Part shown: piece after piece, positions 1,831-62,732 of the stretch
Position numbering within the stretch: position 1 is the first letter of the stretch
How the letters are laid out: each line of letters starts with the position of its first letter
NCBI GenBank assembly: GCA_031412295.1
Contig: JANOCU010000008.1
Location: forward strand, 100,921 to 164,920
From: Bacteroidota bacterium
GTDB lineage: Bacteria; Bacteroidota; Bacteroidia; Palsa-965
Length of the DNA stretch: 64,000 bases
Direction: 5' to 3'
Notes under the pieces: generated by a model
Told to the model about the DNA's origin: nothing
Databases searched by the model: none
Seen by the model: the letters and a program-made list of their open reading frames with translations, nothing else
Made by a program: the position numbers and the translations under genes

Positions 1831-1920
1831 GATTCGAAGATTTGAAAATTCGAAAATTTGAAGATTCGAATAATGTACGACGTGGAATTTTCCAATTTTA
1901 GAATGTTCGAATTATTCGAA
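1831..1920. repeat. Intergenic word array built on ttcgaa/attcgaa units with 10-bp inverted ends
   Basis: gattcgaagatttgaaaattcgaaaatttgaagattcgaataat ... attattcgaa. The inverted ends are ttcgaataat (1865-1874) and attattcgaa (1911-1920). A tgtacga word sits in the centre. Confidence 0.85.
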
Positions 1921-2457
1921 TTATTTCTTCTGAATATATTTCTCTAAAACAGATAATAATTCATCCGGCTTTTGAGTTCCGATGCGATAAATAAATCCGT
2001 CTCTTGTTGTCATCTCAACTGCTTCATTTCCGTAAGTATAAAAACGAACGCGGCCCTTGCTGTGCAGGTTATACACCGGGCGGTTGAAAATGGAGGGACG
2101 AAAACGAATCTTTTTTGCAGATGCAATTCCTTTCAGATCAACACGCACTTTTTTTGATGATAAGCTTCCGTCGATAAAAACTGCGCCTTCTTTTATCGTG
2201 GTTTTCATATGCAAAATGAAAAGCAGCAAAGCCGATAAAAAAAGAATTGCAATTCCGAGAAGAAAAAATAATTGTCCCGAATCATCTCTTCCCGGGTATT
2301 CACCAATACGGAAAAGCTCCAGGTTCACAGGCTTCGGATTTTGCGACCAGTAATACGCCACAAAACAAAACACAGCCAGTAAAAGTCGGCGCACGAGCGA
2401 ATGTTTATTCAATCCGTGGTATTGCTTCTCCTCGAAGAATGGTGATTCAGGCGCCAT
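1921..2457 (-). CDS. Hypothetical membrane protein
   Basis: 178-aa ORF with hydrophobic segments LLLAVFCFVAYYW and LFFLLGIAILFLSALLLFILH followed by a soluble C-terminal part. It overlaps the tilS stop by 11 bp. No family recognised. Confidence 0.5.
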   Translation of the reverse strand: MAPESPFFEEKQYHGLNKHSLVRRLLLAVFCFVAYYWSQNPKPVNLELFRIGEYPGRDDSGQLFFLLGIAILFLSALLLFILHMKTTIKEGAVFIDGSLSSKKVRVDLKGIASAKKIRFRPSIFNRPVYNLHSKGRVRFYTYGNEAVEMTTRDGFIYRIGTQKPDELLSVLEKYIQKK

Positions 2458-3754
2458 AATTCTCCGGGTTGAATTTTAAACGTATAACAGCAGCAGTTTT
2501 TTTTGTGATGCGGAATTTATCAGCAATGCGATAGCCGGGAATCCACACAATTTCATCACCCGAAAGAATAACAGGTGCGCGTTCTTTTTTGTGCGTAGGC
2601 AATTTCATCTCGTTCAGAATATCGCTTACGTTTTTATGACCGTTCATGCCGAATGGAATTAAAGAATCACCTTCTTTCCACGTGCGCATGATTAAAGGCA
2701 AAATTACCAATGACGAATCAACCAGCGCCGACCATTTTTCATTCGGAATTTCATTCGGAATTTCTTCTTTCACAAAGCTGAATGCATCGGTAAGCGTTGT
2801 AGCCGGACTGTCTTTTTTTACAAGAAAAAGAAATTCACGGTCGCGGATCAATCGGTGCGAAGATGAAATTAATTCTGCGCCCGTTTCACCGTTAAGAATA
2901 GTTGAAATTGATGCCGATGCGAATTCAGGAAAACCATTTTTGCGTAAGAAGAAGCGCAGGTAAATTTCTGCTTCTGAAAAACCCCGGATTGCAGCAATTG
3001 AAATTTTCGTTTCGTTTGGATTCAAAATTTCGCAGCAGGTTTTTTCCCAATGGTCCATCGCTGCACCGATCAGCTTTTCAGATTCTTCTAAACGGTTAAA
3101 GCTGGCCTGGAATCCATCGTAAGTCTGCGGAATTTCTTTCATCAGCCACGGTAAAAGATGGTGACGAAAACGATTGCGTGTATATTTATCCGATTCATTG
3201 CTGCTGTCTTCCCGCCATGCTATATTATGTTCAGCGGCATAAGCAACAATTTCATCACGCGTAGTAAAAAGCATCGGCCGGATTAAATTTTTCTGCACAG
3301 GAGAAATTCCGGTAAGTCCTTTCACCCCTGTTCCGCGCGCAAAATTCAGCAAGGCCGTTTCAATTGAATCATCTTTATGATGTGCAGTAACAATTTTGCT
3401 GTAGCCATGTTGTTTGCAGCAAGCTTCAAAAAAATTATAGCGGATATTACGCGCTGCTGCCTGTATGGAATTTTCTCCGCTTGAAGCAAATGTTTCTTCG
3501 GTGCAACGTTCGAGGTAAAAAGGAGCATTCAGTTTTGTTGCAAGCTCCGAAACAAATTTTTCATCGTCATCCGATTCTTTCCCGCGCAATCGATAATTCA
3601 CATGCGCAATTGCAAAATCAATTTTATTCTTCACCAGCAAATCGCAAAGCACAACCGAATCCACGCCCCCGCTCACCGCAGCAAGCACAGGTTCCCCGGC
3701 TAAATAACCGCAAGAAGCAAAAAGGAAGTCATAGAATTGGTCCGGCCTGAGCAT
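2447..3754 (-). CDS. tilS: tRNA(Ile)-lysidine synthase
   Basis: 435 aa with the PP-loop motif SGGVDSVVL near the N-terminus. Overall TilS-like layout with a C-terminal substrate-binding region. Confidence 0.9.
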   Translation of the reverse strand: MLRPDQFYDFLFASCGYLAGEPVLAAVSGGVDSVVLCDLLVKNKIDFAIAHVNYRLRGKESDDDEKFVSELATKLNAPFYLERCTEETFASSGENSIQAAARNIRYNFFEACCKQHGYSKIVTAHHKDDSIETALLNFARGTGVKGLTGISPVQKNLIRPMLFTTRDEIVAYAAEHNIAWREDSSNESDKYTRNRFRHHLLPWLMKEIPQTYDGFQASFNRLEESEKLIGAAMDHWEKTCCEILNPNETKISIAAIRGFSEAEIYLRFFLRKNGFPEFASASISTILNGETGAELISSSHRLIRDREFLFLVKKDSPATTLTDAFSFVKEEIPNEIPNEKWSALVDSSLVILPLIMRTWKEGDSLIPFGMNGHKNVSDILNEMKLPTHKKERAPVILSGDEIVWIPGYRIADKFRITKKTAAVIRLKFNPENYGA

Positions 3755-3761
3755 TGGTAAA

Positions 3762-3905
3762 GTTAGTTGTTTGTTGTTTGTTGTTTGATGTTAGTTGTTT
3801 TGGCATTAAGATTTTGTTTTTCGCTCATTAATTCAATCCTTGAACTACTACCACAAACCACAAACAATCCATTTATGAACAACAAACGACTAACAACAAA
3901 CAACC
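3762..3905. repeat. Inverted pair of heptamer arrays (gttgttt / caaacaa) filling the tilS-pabB spacer
   Basis: The left side reads gttagttgtttgttgtttgttgtttgatgttagttgtttt. The right side reads ccacaaaccacaaacaa...aacaacaaacgactaacaacaaacaacc. The arms are imperfectly complementary. ORFs 3763..3963 and 3767..4000 are just translations of it. Confidence 0.85.
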
Positions 3906-3908
3906 TTT

Positions 3909-5186
3909 TCAACCAATTTCTAATCCCAAGGATTGAAACAACGTTTTCGCCTTTAACAAACATTCCGCATACTCCTTCTCCGGGTCAGACTTTGCTGTAA
4001 TGGCACTTCCAACCATCAGAGACAAATAGCCGGTTTTCGCATTGTACTGAATGCTCCGGATCACCACATTAAAATCGAAATTCATTTCCGGCGTAAAATA
4101 TCCAGTCGCACCTGAATACAGTCCGCGTTTCATATTTTCAAAATCTTCCGTGAGCTGCATCGCCCTGATCTTTGGTGCGCCGGTCATTGATCCCATTGGA
4201 AAAGCATTTTTAATCGCTTCCACCGGGTGAATTGTTTCGTCAAGAACTGCAGTCACCGTCGAGATCATTTGGTGTACGTTTTTGAACGAATGGATTCCGA
4301 AAAGCTCTTCCACTTTCACGCTTCCTTTTTTTGCAGAGCGGGAAAGATCATTGCGTACAAGATCCACGATCATCACATTTTCACTGCGCTCTTTCGGGTC
4401 GTTAAGCAATTCGGTTTTTAATGCTTCATCTTCTTCCTTGCTTTTTCCTCTTGGCCGCGTGCCTTTGATCGGTTGTGAAATTAATTTATCGTCCTCCTTT
4501 TTTAAAAACCGTTCCGGGCTCGCGCACATCAGCCATTGATCGTGGTATTTATACAACACTGAAAATGGCGCTTCACACAGCTCATTTAATTTACGGTAAA
4601 CAGCAAGAGGGTCAATTGAAACATTTTCCGCGTAAAATTCAATGCAATAATTTATCTCGTAAATATCACCCCGGTGAATATGCGCAAGAAGTGCATTGAC
4701 AGTTGAAATGTATTGCTCCTTTGTTGTGCGCTCCTGCAATGTAAATTGCTGTTCCTGGTTTTTATTTTCATCAGCATGGTTAAAAATGCGAAGGAAATCT
4801 GCAGGAAGAATTTTGTTTTCGGGGACAATCCTGAAATCATCTTTTGTTTTAACCAGCATTAATTCCGGGTTAAAAAAATAAGCCGCAGGAAATTCCATTC
4901 CTGAAAAATGGCGTGAAGAAAGTGTTTCTACCACATTCTTCAGCTCATAGCTGAAATGACCAAAAGCAGTTGCATTTCCCGAAAGAAATTCTTCCAGCTG
5001 CTTAAAAACACGTGCATCTTCATTACCGATAAATTCATTTTCCACGCCGAAACCTGCCATCCATTCAAAAGCACCGTTTTCACTGTTATCCTGGAAAATT
5101 ATTCCCACTTCATTTGTGCTGAAAAGGGAATACAGCTCCGATGGAAGTAAGCTTAATGATGAACGTTTCGTTTCAGTTTGATTCAC
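3909..5186 (-). CDS. pabB: Aminodeoxychorismate synthase component I / anthranilate synthase component I family protein
   Basis: 425 aa with chorismate-binding signatures PERFLK and GSMTGAPKIRAM. The short N-terminus is typical of PabB-type enzymes. Confidence 0.75.
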   Translation of the reverse strand: MNQTETKRSSLSLLPSELYSLFSTNEVGIIFQDNSENGAFEWMAGFGVENEFIGNEDARVFKQLEEFLSGNATAFGHFSYELKNVVETLSSRHFSGMEFPAAYFFNPELMLVKTKDDFRIVPENKILPADFLRIFNHADENKNQEQQFTLQERTTKEQYISTVNALLAHIHRGDIYEINYCIEFYAENVSIDPLAVYRKLNELCEAPFSVLYKYHDQWLMCASPERFLKKEDDKLISQPIKGTRPRGKSKEEDEALKTELLNDPKERSENVMIVDLVRNDLSRSAKKGSVKVEELFGIHSFKNVHQMISTVTAVLDETIHPVEAIKNAFPMGSMTGAPKIRAMQLTEDFENMKRGLYSGATGYFTPEMNFDFNVVIRSIQYNAKTGYLSLMVGSAITAKSDPEKEYAECLLKAKTLFQSLGLEIG

Positions 5187-62248: not shown

Positions 62249-62328
62249 ATTGAGAATTGATAGAATTTTTAAATCCGCCGCAAAAATAGGAAGTTTCTTC
62301 GGGAATTGGTTCGAAGATGTTGATAATA

Positions 62329-62431
62329 TGGGAAAGAAAAATGGGGAAGGAAAAAAAGGGGACGGAAAAGGGGGACGAGGGGACGGAAAATGGGGACGGA
62401 AATGGGACGAGGGACCGGAAATGGGACGTGG
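62329..62431. repeat. gggacga/gggacggaaa word array
   Basis: Sequence ggggacggaaaagggggacgaggggacggaaaatggggacggaaatgggacgagggaccggaaatgggacgtgg. The same word is found inside the MBOAT gene at 38860-38890. Confidence 0.9.
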
Positions 62432-62493
62432 ATCAGTTTGTGAGCATTGGGGGATTGGGGCCTTGCGTGAGTGATAGCAGTGAAAAGCCCGGA

Positions 62494-62584
62494 CCCTGAA
62501 GGGACATCCTTCATGTTTCCTTCAGGGGAGGACTTGCAACGTATAGCACGGTCGTGAAGGAACACCCTTCGTGTTTCCTTCACG
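62494..62584. repeat. Two tandem related hairpins (H2, H3) of the tgaag...tttccttca family
   Basis: H2 is ccctgaagg-gacatccttcatgttt-ccttcaggg (62494-62527). H3 is cgtgaagg-aacacccttcgtgttt-ccttcacg (62553-62584). Confidence 0.85.
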
Positions 62585-62650
62585 GCACGCCCATAAAAAA
62601 ATGTACGAATTACGATGTCGAATTACTTCCCACTATTCTCTATTCACTTT

Positions 62651-62732
62651 TCACCTGTCACCTGTCACCCGTCACCCGTCACCCGTCACCAATCACCAAT
62701 CACCAATCACCACCAACCACCAACCACCAACC
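62651..62732. repeat. Stepwise-mutating heptamer array
   Basis: The units run (tcacctg)x2 (tcacccg)x3 (tcaccaa)x3 tcaccac (caaccac)x2 caacc, with the 7-nt phase uninterrupted. Confidence 0.95.

Follow-up and report, generated by a model that had tools for sequence, protein, structure and literature searches.

What are the tandem word arrays that occupy so many spacers of this Bacteroidota genome, and how did they come to be there? We address this question in a 64,000-nt stretch (hereafter the window; C8:100921-164920, contig JANOCU010000008.1) of a draft genome of 5.47 Mb, 41% GC and 33 contigs (GCA_031412295.1), whose AtpD has at most 86% identity to any named record. By a crude open reading frame (ORF) call, 88% of this genome is coding and ~12% is non-coding. 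The lineage is uncultured and its sample was probably a freshwater sediment metagenome; relatives of the organism are present in ice metatranscriptomes. The arrays consist of 7- or 8-nt words, and many of them form inverted pairs. As shown below, they are associated with genes for a four-helix-bundle protein of PF05635, the family that is encoded in the intervening sequences (IVSs) of 23S rRNA and that is related to Avd, the accessory protein of diversity-generating retroelements. This gene link was absent from the preliminary description of the window. Our reading, to which we give a probability of about 0.55, is that the arrays represent the gene-less majority of IVS-like hairpin cassettes, to which in-place duplication and tiny palindromic insertions have been added.

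We called arrays of at least three copies with Tandem Repeats Finder (TRF) and used three dinucleotide shuffles of the spacers as controls. Genome-wide, there are 769 period-7 arrays (658 intergenic) and 403 period-8 arrays (358 intergenic), while other periods are far scarcer, with 135 arrays at period 6, 99 at period 9 and at most 62 elsewhere. The spacers hold 620 period-7 arrays versus 1-5 in the shuffles and 345 period-8 arrays versus 2-4, an excess of more than 100-fold, and the intergenic fraction of both classes is 86-89%, against the ~12% of DNA that is non-coding. Units of 5-11 nt repeated head to tail, a predominance of 7 nt, numbers above chance and a strongly intergenic location are also the traits of heptameric short tandem repeats (STRRs). 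Altogether, the genome contains 138 distinct canonical heptamers and 96 octamers. Dispersed repeats, measured by 16-mers present at least four times, account for 14.1% of the bases in intergenic DNA and 0.75% of those in coding DNA.

The twelve word families that the preliminary description listed in the window were all recovered where it had placed them, by TRF and by a word count per interval that also bore out their orientation, and the genome-wide scan that it proposed found both intergenic enrichment and recurrent hairpin cores. Its emphasis on a 7-nt period is borne out by a sharp peak at 7, but period 8 is nearly as frequent. That arrays fill nearly every spacer was overstated: a period-7/8 array is present in 13 of the 31 window spacers of at least 60 nt, and in 23-34% of spacers genome-wide, depending on the spacer type (dispersed 16-mers occur in 14/31 and 42%, respectively). 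Arrays do abut or overlap stop codons, as it had noticed, at 30125, 30849, 45819 and 56331. In co-directional spacers across the genome, 139 of 580 arrays overlap the upstream stop or begin within 5 nt of it. Orientation relative to transcription is balanced (290 versus 290), and arrays are present in every spacer type.

The large families are made up of dispersed copies that share one internal order of word variants, and the arrays are not independent local microsatellites. One large family, E1 (GGTAATCT), has ~170-250 copies; its inner anchor GGTAACTGGGTAAT has 279 matches at up to two mismatches, most of which show the consensus GATCTGGTAATCTGGTAATCTGGTAACTGGGTAAT followed by a TGAAAAAA tail. 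Counted as arms by BLAST, E1 has 173 copies, AATGTGCT 70, GGTTGGTGG 40 and GATTACC 35. The inverted pairing that had been seen in the window is general, as two neighbouring arrays with a common word are in inverted orientation in 83 cases and in direct orientation in 13, with 43 inverted pairs in E1 and 14 in the AATGTGCT family. These pairs have the terminal inverted repeats of a miniature inverted-repeat transposable element; a shared interior and a transposase-bearing relative were not found, since the interiors are unrelated and the cargo is a four-helix-bundle gene. The pair centres, which are 5-280 nt long, have no relation among copies, and we rejected an origin of the gene-less pairs by internal deletion on this ground. 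The word units are direct repeats that have no internal palindrome and no GTAG or CGTC tag. Target-site duplications are not definable, because the outer array ends differ in unit number; at the atp spacer, T-runs border the element.

The inverted pairs fold into stems of 25-40 bp, whereas other arrays occur as solo arms. Folding of the pairs in the window, as the preliminary description had suggested, gave z-scores between -3.5 and -12.4, with six of the seven pairs at -5.6 or lower on at least one strand; the strongest fold is that of 40000-40250 (dG -111, z -12.4), and solo arrays, e.g., that at 46325-46415, show no fold. Within several pairs there is a separate terminator-like GC hairpin in which stem changes are compensatory, and such a hairpin lies at the centre of the E1 pair at 42491..42670. 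Many E1 pairs (e.g., C15:119705-119871, C27:30469-30624 and C33:64331-64483) have a TGAAAAAAATAAAA tail, a variable GC hairpin and a GCGCACAAAGGCC box, a layout that might represent either a structured RNA or a bidirectional terminator that has been captured. The pairs are not ordinary intrinsic terminators, as TTTT follows only 22 and 20 of the 83 pairs on the two strands, about a quarter, and 14 pairs lie in divergent spacers. No Rfam family matched the window at the gathering threshold. At 62651-62732 the words change stepwise from TCACCTG through TCACCCG and TCACCAA to CCACCAA, which is a sign of unit duplication in place.

On inspection, all eight PF05635 genes of the source genome sit between inverted word arrays, each with its own word: E1, AATGTGCT (a 36-nt perfect repeat), GATTACC (a 30-nt perfect repeat), GTAAATGTGCAAATT, GGTTGGTGGTAGGT, GGGGACGGAAAAAA, GGGGAATT and CAATGCCAAACTAA. 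All of them occupy ordinary spacers and none lies in a 23S rRNA helix, and each has the IVS-type arrangement of a PF05635 ORF enclosed by stem-forming inverted repeats. Among 4,250 called genes, only 42 reach a flank inverted-repeat score of 18, our cut-off within the source genome, and the four-helix-bundle genes contribute seven of these 42, with one of the eight scoring lower. The gene-bearing copies have arms of the same families, and with the same variant order, as abundant gene-less copies, and gene-bearing arm families are among the most abundant gene-less ones. In the window, the AATGTGCT arms at 40006..40242 are of the same family as the arms of the four-helix-bundle gene at C22:72006, and the GGGGACGG-type arrays have a word family in common with the arms of the gene at C22:110519. 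The arrays and the four-helix-bundle genes are thereby linked by association. The closest solved structure to the protein is 2RLD, an entry with five chains. The family is not known to have a function outside diversity-generating retroelements.

The same layout recurs far beyond the source genome. Eleven further genomes of the class contributed 20 four-helix-bundle genes, and 16 of these are flanked by arms of 7-8-nt words. The gene is present in 63 of 81 genomes in a phylum-wide Bacteroidota sample, where 13 of 28 genes reach the cut-off of 14 that was used there, nearly all with period-7 arms, versus none of 55 windows shifted by 1 kb. On metagenome contigs of other phyla, three of four homologues show the layout (Terriglobales, AGAATGC; Ignavibacteriales, GGATTTC; a 1.3-Mb contig, CGATTTA), and the Deltaproteobacteria homologue has arms upstream only. 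A search of 72,556 plasmids yielded 30 records with a homologue, mostly cyanobacterial and 15 of them from Nostoc, and all eight copies inspected lie between inverted heptamer or octamer arrays, e.g., GGTCGGA in Nostoc punctiforme and five copies of AATTCGT in N. flagelliforme (35/35 matching). Further armed plasmid copies come from Planktothrix, Anabaena, Gloeocapsa, Nostoc C057, Chlorohelix (Chloroflexota) and Treponema (Spirochaetota). The layout has thus been seen in relatives and across Bacteroidota, Cyanobacteriota, Chloroflexota, Spirochaetota, Acidobacteriota and Ignavibacteriales. Closely related four-helix-bundle proteins of different species share arm words, and the GTATTGA-armed cassettes of two genomes (G002 and G012) have arms and gene in common but different outer flanks, as expected if the unit has moved. 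Our literature searches turned up no report of a link between stand-alone four-helix-bundle genes and heptamer arrays, and the papers on heptamer arrays named no gene or mechanism. Some armed genes lie inside defence operons on plasmids of Planktothrix, Anabaena, Gloeocapsa and Chlorohelix (loci L275, L276, L277 and L278), where the genes on their two sides are drmD and one for an MmeI-type enzyme, cas2 and cas1, or DUF1156 and Swt1-HEPN genes, the last in two phyla.

Some nuclease-type genes of the source genome have similar surroundings. The other genes that score at least 18 include one GIY-YIG gene and two of the PDDEXK_3/GxxExxY type. Three of the seven PDDEXK_3/GxxExxY genes (TIGR04256) lie between inverted repeats, two with scores of 24-37 and one with 16; the inverted-repeat-flanked nuclease-type genes are at C11:6324-6722, C32:163677-164102, C5:546927-547403 and C8:449937-450380. 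Possibly, these PDDEXK_3 and GIY-YIG copies are similarly built cassettes whose cargo is a nuclease.

To compare presence and absence, we determined array densities by TRF on 200-400 kb samples per genome. Three genomes without a four-helix-bundle gene have 0-6.4 period-7 arrays per Mb and four with the gene have 65-141. Given as period 7/period 8 per Mb, the gene-less genomes show 6.4/0 (G006), 0/0 (G004) and 5/0 (G043), and those with the gene show 75/45 (G002, 16 genes), 67/10 (G010, 8 genes), 65/22 (G078, 8 genes) and 141/74 (source genome, 8 genes). In 80 atpD loci of diverse Bacteroidota, the density of period-7 arrays reaches 100 per Mb. An array is present at the atpD locus in 17 of 34 gene-bearing and 0 of 6 gene-less genomes (Fisher p = 0.03, with kinship ignored). 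A dose relation between gene copies and arrays was rejected, as the correlation is not significant.

The atpD-atpC spacer is a recurrent landing site, and it illustrates how quickly arrays are exchanged. Most of 20 inspected loci have a word hairpin there, with words unique to each species; these hairpins, at ~4,490-4,600 of the loci L001-L080, are found in Pedobacter, Pontibacter, Dyadobacter, Larkinella, Hymenobacter, Sphingobacterium, Flavisolibacter, Leeuwenhoekiella and others. In the source genome the spacer holds a GTTGTCA/TGACAAC hairpin, whereas G001, the closest relative and 96% identical in atpD, has a AGACTTGAGA hairpin with the same boundaries; G012 (88%) has no hairpin, and in G013 and G010 the hairpins are REP-like (GTCATCCTGAGCGGAGTCGAAGGATGAC). 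Upstream of atpD, the spacer measures 421 nt and is filled with arrays in the source, versus 136 nt in G012. In the six gene-less genomes, four spacers of 1, 3, 21 and 24 nt lack a hairpin and two of 59-70 nt show weak, non-periodic folds, so that the hairpin is dispensable. Pedobacter psychroterrae, which has no four-helix-bundle gene, has a 1-nt spacer here, and P. aquatilis, which has eight, has an 85-nt word hairpin. These differences agree with the fast diversification that the preliminary description had proposed. Its view of a genome-specific system holds for the words, which are specific to each species, but not for the architecture, as period-7 word hairpins occur across Bacteroidota and in other phyla. 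The assembly of G001 has 710 contigs, and many four-helix-bundle homologues lie on contigs of 0.5-2 kb; word repeats probably break short-read assemblies.

A second layer consists of tiny palindromic modules nested in the arrays. The three hairpin cores that the preliminary description recognised do recur genome-wide: TCCGCCGCGGCGGA (14 nt) has 86 copies, 75 of them intergenic, TCCCGATAGCTATCGGGA (18 nt; TCCCGAT-loop-ATCGGGA) has 74, 61 of them intergenic, and TGAAGG...CCTTCA has 48, 31 of them intergenic. The first two are perfect palindromes that start with TCC and end with GGA. TCCGCCGCGGCGGA is nested in arrays of at least 12 words, with the identical word in the same orientation on each side, and the proposed architecture of a few constant cores in many interchangeable words is confirmed in that the modules sit inside many word families. 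Empty arrays for comparison are available for 36 of the 86 TCCGCCGCGGCGGA copies, amounting to 303 empty sites that are paralogous and not orthologous. In 218 comparisons these sites have 3 nt between the TCCGCCGCGGCGGA flanks, in 50 they have 5 nt and in 19 they have 10 nt (3 + 7), which means that TCCGCCGCGGCGGA replaces 3 or 5 nt at a word-unit junction. No target duplication was consistent with every context of TCCGCCGCGGCGGA. A duplication of 4 or 11 nt fits the heptamer arrays because of their periodicity alone, and it was rejected since non-heptamer contexts show a 3- or 5-nt replacement. The TCCCGATAGCTATCGGGA sites, judged by eye only, resemble either the replacement of 5 nt or the duplication of 2 nt. 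E1 arms are interrupted by TCCCGATAGCTATCGGGA and by a third module, CCTTCGGCAGGCTCAGGACAAGT.

Within the genus, TCCGCCGCGGCGGA is present in 86 copies in the source genome, 91 in G001, 94 in G023, 18-22 in three other genomes and none in eleven. Outside the genus it is essentially absent, as the one match equals the control and is at chance level. The TGAAGG...CCTTCA hairpins are part of E5, a structured dispersed repeat of ~110 nt with 48 copies, conserved ACTTGTAACG and AGCCCGACC boxes and no Rfam match, which lies at 62470-62600 and 60190-60260 in the window and into which TCCGCCGCGGCGGA is inserted at two positions, depending on the copy. The ORF at 38450-40000 has array words inside it at 39709-39813, together with a TCCCGATAGGTATCGGGA palindrome at 39769-39786.

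Heptamer arrays as such have precedents. Cyanobacterial STRRs are said to go back to Mazel in 1990, and Elhai reportedly described in 2008 small dispersed repeats (SDRs) of Nostoc punctiforme that sit inside tandem arrays of heptamers and inside other repeats. Inverted heptamer pairs have been found in spacers of Xanthomonas (GGGAATC) and Nostoc (GGGGATT; Rehm et al. 2015, PMC4692102), and TAACTGA arrays, in spacers that also hold other heptamer repeats, in Beggiatoaceae, Cyanobacteria and five Bacteroidetes (MacGregor 2015, PMC4679880). The preliminary description knew of no published equivalent in Bacteroidota, but equivalents have been reported. Like these heptameric simple-sequence repeats (SSRs) and STRRs, the arrays described here are tandem 7-nt units that are ~90% intergenic and often close to the end of the upstream gene, that form convergent inverted stem-loop pairs, and that vary in length and sequence among close relatives. 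Unlike them, the source genome has more than 200 words instead of one or a few, a period of 8 that is nearly as common, dispersed families of fixed word order and nested palindromes, and the SSR and STRR papers name no associated gene family. The nested modules resemble the Nostoc SDRs, as these are reported, in being very small hairpins inside heptamer arrays with filled and empty sites (here paralogous). They differ in being perfect TCC...GGA palindromes of 14 and 18 nt in a different phylum, the 14-nt one of which replaces 3 or 5 nt.

The gene-bearing copies have their closest counterpart in the ORF-bearing 23S IVSs of Leptospira and Coxiella. In Coxiella burnetii the IVS has a 28-bp stem and an S23p ORF, is excised by RNase III and was put forward long ago as a mobile element (Warrier et al. 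2016, PMC4990558). Both have a PF05635 ORF between terminal inverted repeats of ~28 bp that form a stem, and for both a sporadic distribution suggests horizontal spread. However, the source copies lie in ordinary spacers and operons, have visibly tandem-word arms and are accompanied by hundreds of gene-less copies. The system of repetitive extragenic palindromic (REP) sequences, their mosaic (BIME) and doublet (REPIN) forms and the RAYT transposase (Bertels and Rainey 2011, PMC3116915) is similar in its abundant extragenic inverted doublets, hairpins, cognate gene flanked by its own repeats and mosaic spacers, but the words of the source genome are non-palindromic, whereas a REP unit is an imperfect palindrome of 20-40 nt, and they lack the GTAG/CGTC tag. 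RAYT was rejected as the driver of the arrays: the three full-length Y1_Tnp genes that we inspected, among five matches, have no word arrays nearby, and two of these three RAYT-like genes are flanked by classical REPs of the GTCGCCCCTACAGGGCTT type. The genome thus has a separate REP/RAYT system (genes C13:78331-78792 and C15:9869-10331; 19 exact copies of GTCGCCCCTACAGGGCTT and 24 of its core GCCCCTACAGGGC). In the Ssn GIY-YIG single-strand nucleases and their NTS/SRM hairpin repeats (Chenal et al. 2025, PMC11893778), a small gene is likewise flanked by a dispersed repeat with hundreds of genomic copies, which it recognises; the Ssn partner is a proven nuclease, whereas the four-helix-bundle candidate has no activity known to us. 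The GIY-YIG gene of the source genome at C8:449937-450380 has a different hairpin module on its flanks.

Could the arrays have arisen in place? They would then be long SSRs with a 7-nt polymerase step, the inverted pairs would result from fold-back or template-switch synthesis, and the four-helix-bundle cassettes would be a separate element that prefers hairpin loops, as in 23S rRNA helices. Mrazek is said to have explained long SSRs by polymerase slippage in 2007. Slippage has been put forward for heptamers generally (cited in PMC4679880 and PMC4692102), and it agrees with the stepwise gradient at 62651-62732, which resembles in-place duplication, with pair centres that are unrelated local DNA, with the lack of a transposase or target duplication in our searches and with the ~70% of arrays that have no resident gene-bearing copy. 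Dispersed copies with a common variant order, the near-lack of arrays in gene-less congeners, the hairpin swap at one site at 96% flank identity and the sharing of words by related proteins across species are all left unexplained by it, and we consider this origin unlikely. That the arrays are artefacts of assembly or polishing is barely conceivable: Logan contigs of run X1, an independent assembly of the reads, are identical to the window over 60300-61408 and 62556-62800, reproducing two array stretches, so that the arrays are not polishing artefacts, and the same architecture occurs in hundreds of independent genomes, complete ones included.

Selection on the hairpins themselves could also maintain them, as intercistronic stabilisers, attenuators or processing sites that tune expression, e.g., of atpD versus atpC, with the stem kept and its sequence free. 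The REP in the malE-malF spacer of E. coli, an intercistronic RNA element, is the model for such a role. Strong stem folding and compensatory stems within E1 pairs agree with it, most sampled Bacteroidota have an atpD-atpC hairpin although the sequences are unrelated, and an RNA contig of a relative spans the atp spacer. However, gene-less genomes lack the atpD-atpC word hairpin (spacers of 1-24 nt or weak folds), many arrays are solo and non-folding, the strands are balanced at 290 versus 290, and pairs occur in divergent promoter spacers with few followed by a T-run, which together make this explanation improbable. We see still less reason to regard the arrays as binding sites of a nucleoid-associated or regulatory protein that organise DNA or regulate genes and are not selfish. 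Periodic words would suit multimeric binders, the entry of the closest solved structure has five chains, and each four-helix-bundle gene lies between its own words like an autoregulated gene; but more than 200 different words, no consistent position relative to promoters, quick turnover among close relatives and congeners without arrays speak against such sites.

We favour the reading that the arrays are mostly gene-less IVS-like cassettes. Such cassettes would colonise tolerated, transcribed spacers and be replaced quickly, and in-place unit duplication would add further word variety. By analogy with the Coxiella IVS stem, the long stems, once transcribed, may be RNase III substrates or else 3' stabilisers, in which case a cassette could sit in an operon with little harm; it is from this analogy that we infer RNase III cleavage. 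The weakest step is that a four-helix-bundle pentamer may recognise ~3-5 tandem words, a speculation that derives from arm lengths of ~17-36 nt and from the pairing of proteins with words.

Several points weigh against this reading. No transposase, target duplication or observed movement backs mobility, and we know of no catalytic activity of the four-helix-bundle protein. The unrelated centres imply that the pairs are not simple deletion derivatives of a single master copy, and of the 1,108 arrays only 333 use words of a family that also has a gene-bearing copy in the genome. Gene cassettes landing in existing hairpin loops would give the same association, and the unit length of 7-8 nt is not accounted for. 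The evidence from presence and absence comprises seven genomes by density and 40 by one locus, with kinship ignored, and four-helix-bundle copy number does not correlate significantly with array count (Spearman 0.21). Moreover, the inverted-repeat criterion for four-helix-bundle genes is lenient and the samples are weighted toward the source lineage, while the plasmid cassettes are the best matches to a single protein.

Table 1. Word arrays, inverted pairs, hairpin cores and the armed gene in the window, with positions counted from its first nucleotide.
Position	Strand	Feature	Detail
1832..1925		ATTCGAAA-type octamer inverted pair, hairpin	TRF; dG -27.8, z -5.6
3762..3904		GTTGTTT array and inverted AACAAAC array around ~80 nt	z per strand -3.5 and -6.2
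9703..9778		GGTTGGT/CCACCAA foldback	dG -51.7, z -9.7
9865..9903	+	TCACCAA array with TCCGCCGCGGCGGA (9879-9892)	empty paralogues have AAT instead of the palindrome
23770..23808	+	TCACCAA-palindrome composite, second identical copy (palindrome 23784-23797)	
30096..30126		CTCCGAACTAA-type array overlapping the stop of gene 30125-30646(-)	TRF
30815..30844		CTCCAAACTAACCA 14-mer array, last base 4 nt from stop 30849-30851	TRF
40006..40242		AATGTGCT-family foldback, ~36-bp arms and internal GC hairpin	dG -111, z -12.4
41283..41318		AATGTGCT-family solo arm	TRF
41606..41703		GTTGTTT/AAACAAC inverted pair	z -3.5 and -5.3
42491..42670		E1 inverted pair, TCCCGATGAAAGATCGGGA hairpin (42499-42517) in left arm	dG -75, z -8.7
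43189..43255	+	TGGGAAAT octamer array, then GGTTGGT array	TRF
45656..45820		AATTCAA array (45656-45687); AAAACTC/CTCCGAACTAA arrays (45753-45820) into the stop at 45819	
46332..46413	+	GGTAATC/CGGTAAT solo array, ~10 units, no fold	z -1.2
51907..52496	+	gene-bearing E1 cassette, arms 51907-51934 and 52469-52496	inverted-repeat score 26
51974-52351		four-helix-bundle gene (PF05635, TIGR02436) in the E1 cassette	PDB 2RLD, E 2e-18
56108..56330		TAGTTCGGAG arrays, inverted CTCCGAACTAACCA array, degenerate palindrome 56118-56130	abuts stop 56331
60676..60743		GTTGTCA/TGACAAC hairpin, atpC-atpD spacer	dG -30.9, z -8.3
62328..62428	+	GGGGACGG-type G-rich arrays, solo, non-folding	TRF
62497..62582	+	two TGAAGG...CCTTCA hairpins, part of E5	
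62651..62732	+	TCACCTG-to-CCACCAA word gradient	TRF
9879-9892, 23784-23797		core 1, TCCGCCGCGGCGGA	degenerate copy 56118-56130
42499-42517, 39769-39786		core 2, TCCCGAT-loop-ATCGGGA	
62497-62524, 62555-62582		core 3, TGAAGG...CCTTCA	

The TCACCAA-palindrome 39-mer that is present twice in the window (Table 1) has four exact and ten near-identical genomic copies; being multicopy, its copies at 9865-9903 and 23770-23808 need not mark the ends of a mobile segment. At the end of the window, the mechanical ORF at 62269-62583(-) and the start of that at 62554-63681(+) pass through the G-rich and TCACCNN arrays. Comparison with G012 places the true start of the downstream gene near 62750, which shows that arrays inflate ORF calls; word arrays can thus create spurious ones.

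The heptamer arrays themselves were already known; what is new is the nested architecture of many words and the link to a gene. It joins two problems from the repeat side, through shared arms, the loss of arrays in gene-less congeners and recurrence in at least six phyla, and it concerns a four-helix-bundle "IVS protein" family that gave more than 8,000 matches in one search. The binding specificity of the protein and the processing of the arms by RNase III become simple bench questions, and cultured species pairs that differ in the presence of the gene exist, such as Pedobacter aquatilis and P. psychroterrae. A bolder possibility, which we hold as tentative and rather doubtful, is that PF05635 pentamers serve, in bacteria at large, as sequence-specific partners of heptamer and octamer tandem repeats, and that they drive the spread and maintenance of the gene-less arrays or are required for both. 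The word that goes with a protein lineage would be recognised by it in ~3-5 copies, either in RNA or in single-stranded DNA, and the gene would travel between an inverted pair of these words. If this were true, one explanation would cover the cyanobacterial STRRs and bacterial heptamer SSRs generally, the IVSs of 23S rRNA would be those copies that inserted into rRNA, and what Avd does in diversity-generating retroelements would be a derived use of the fold.

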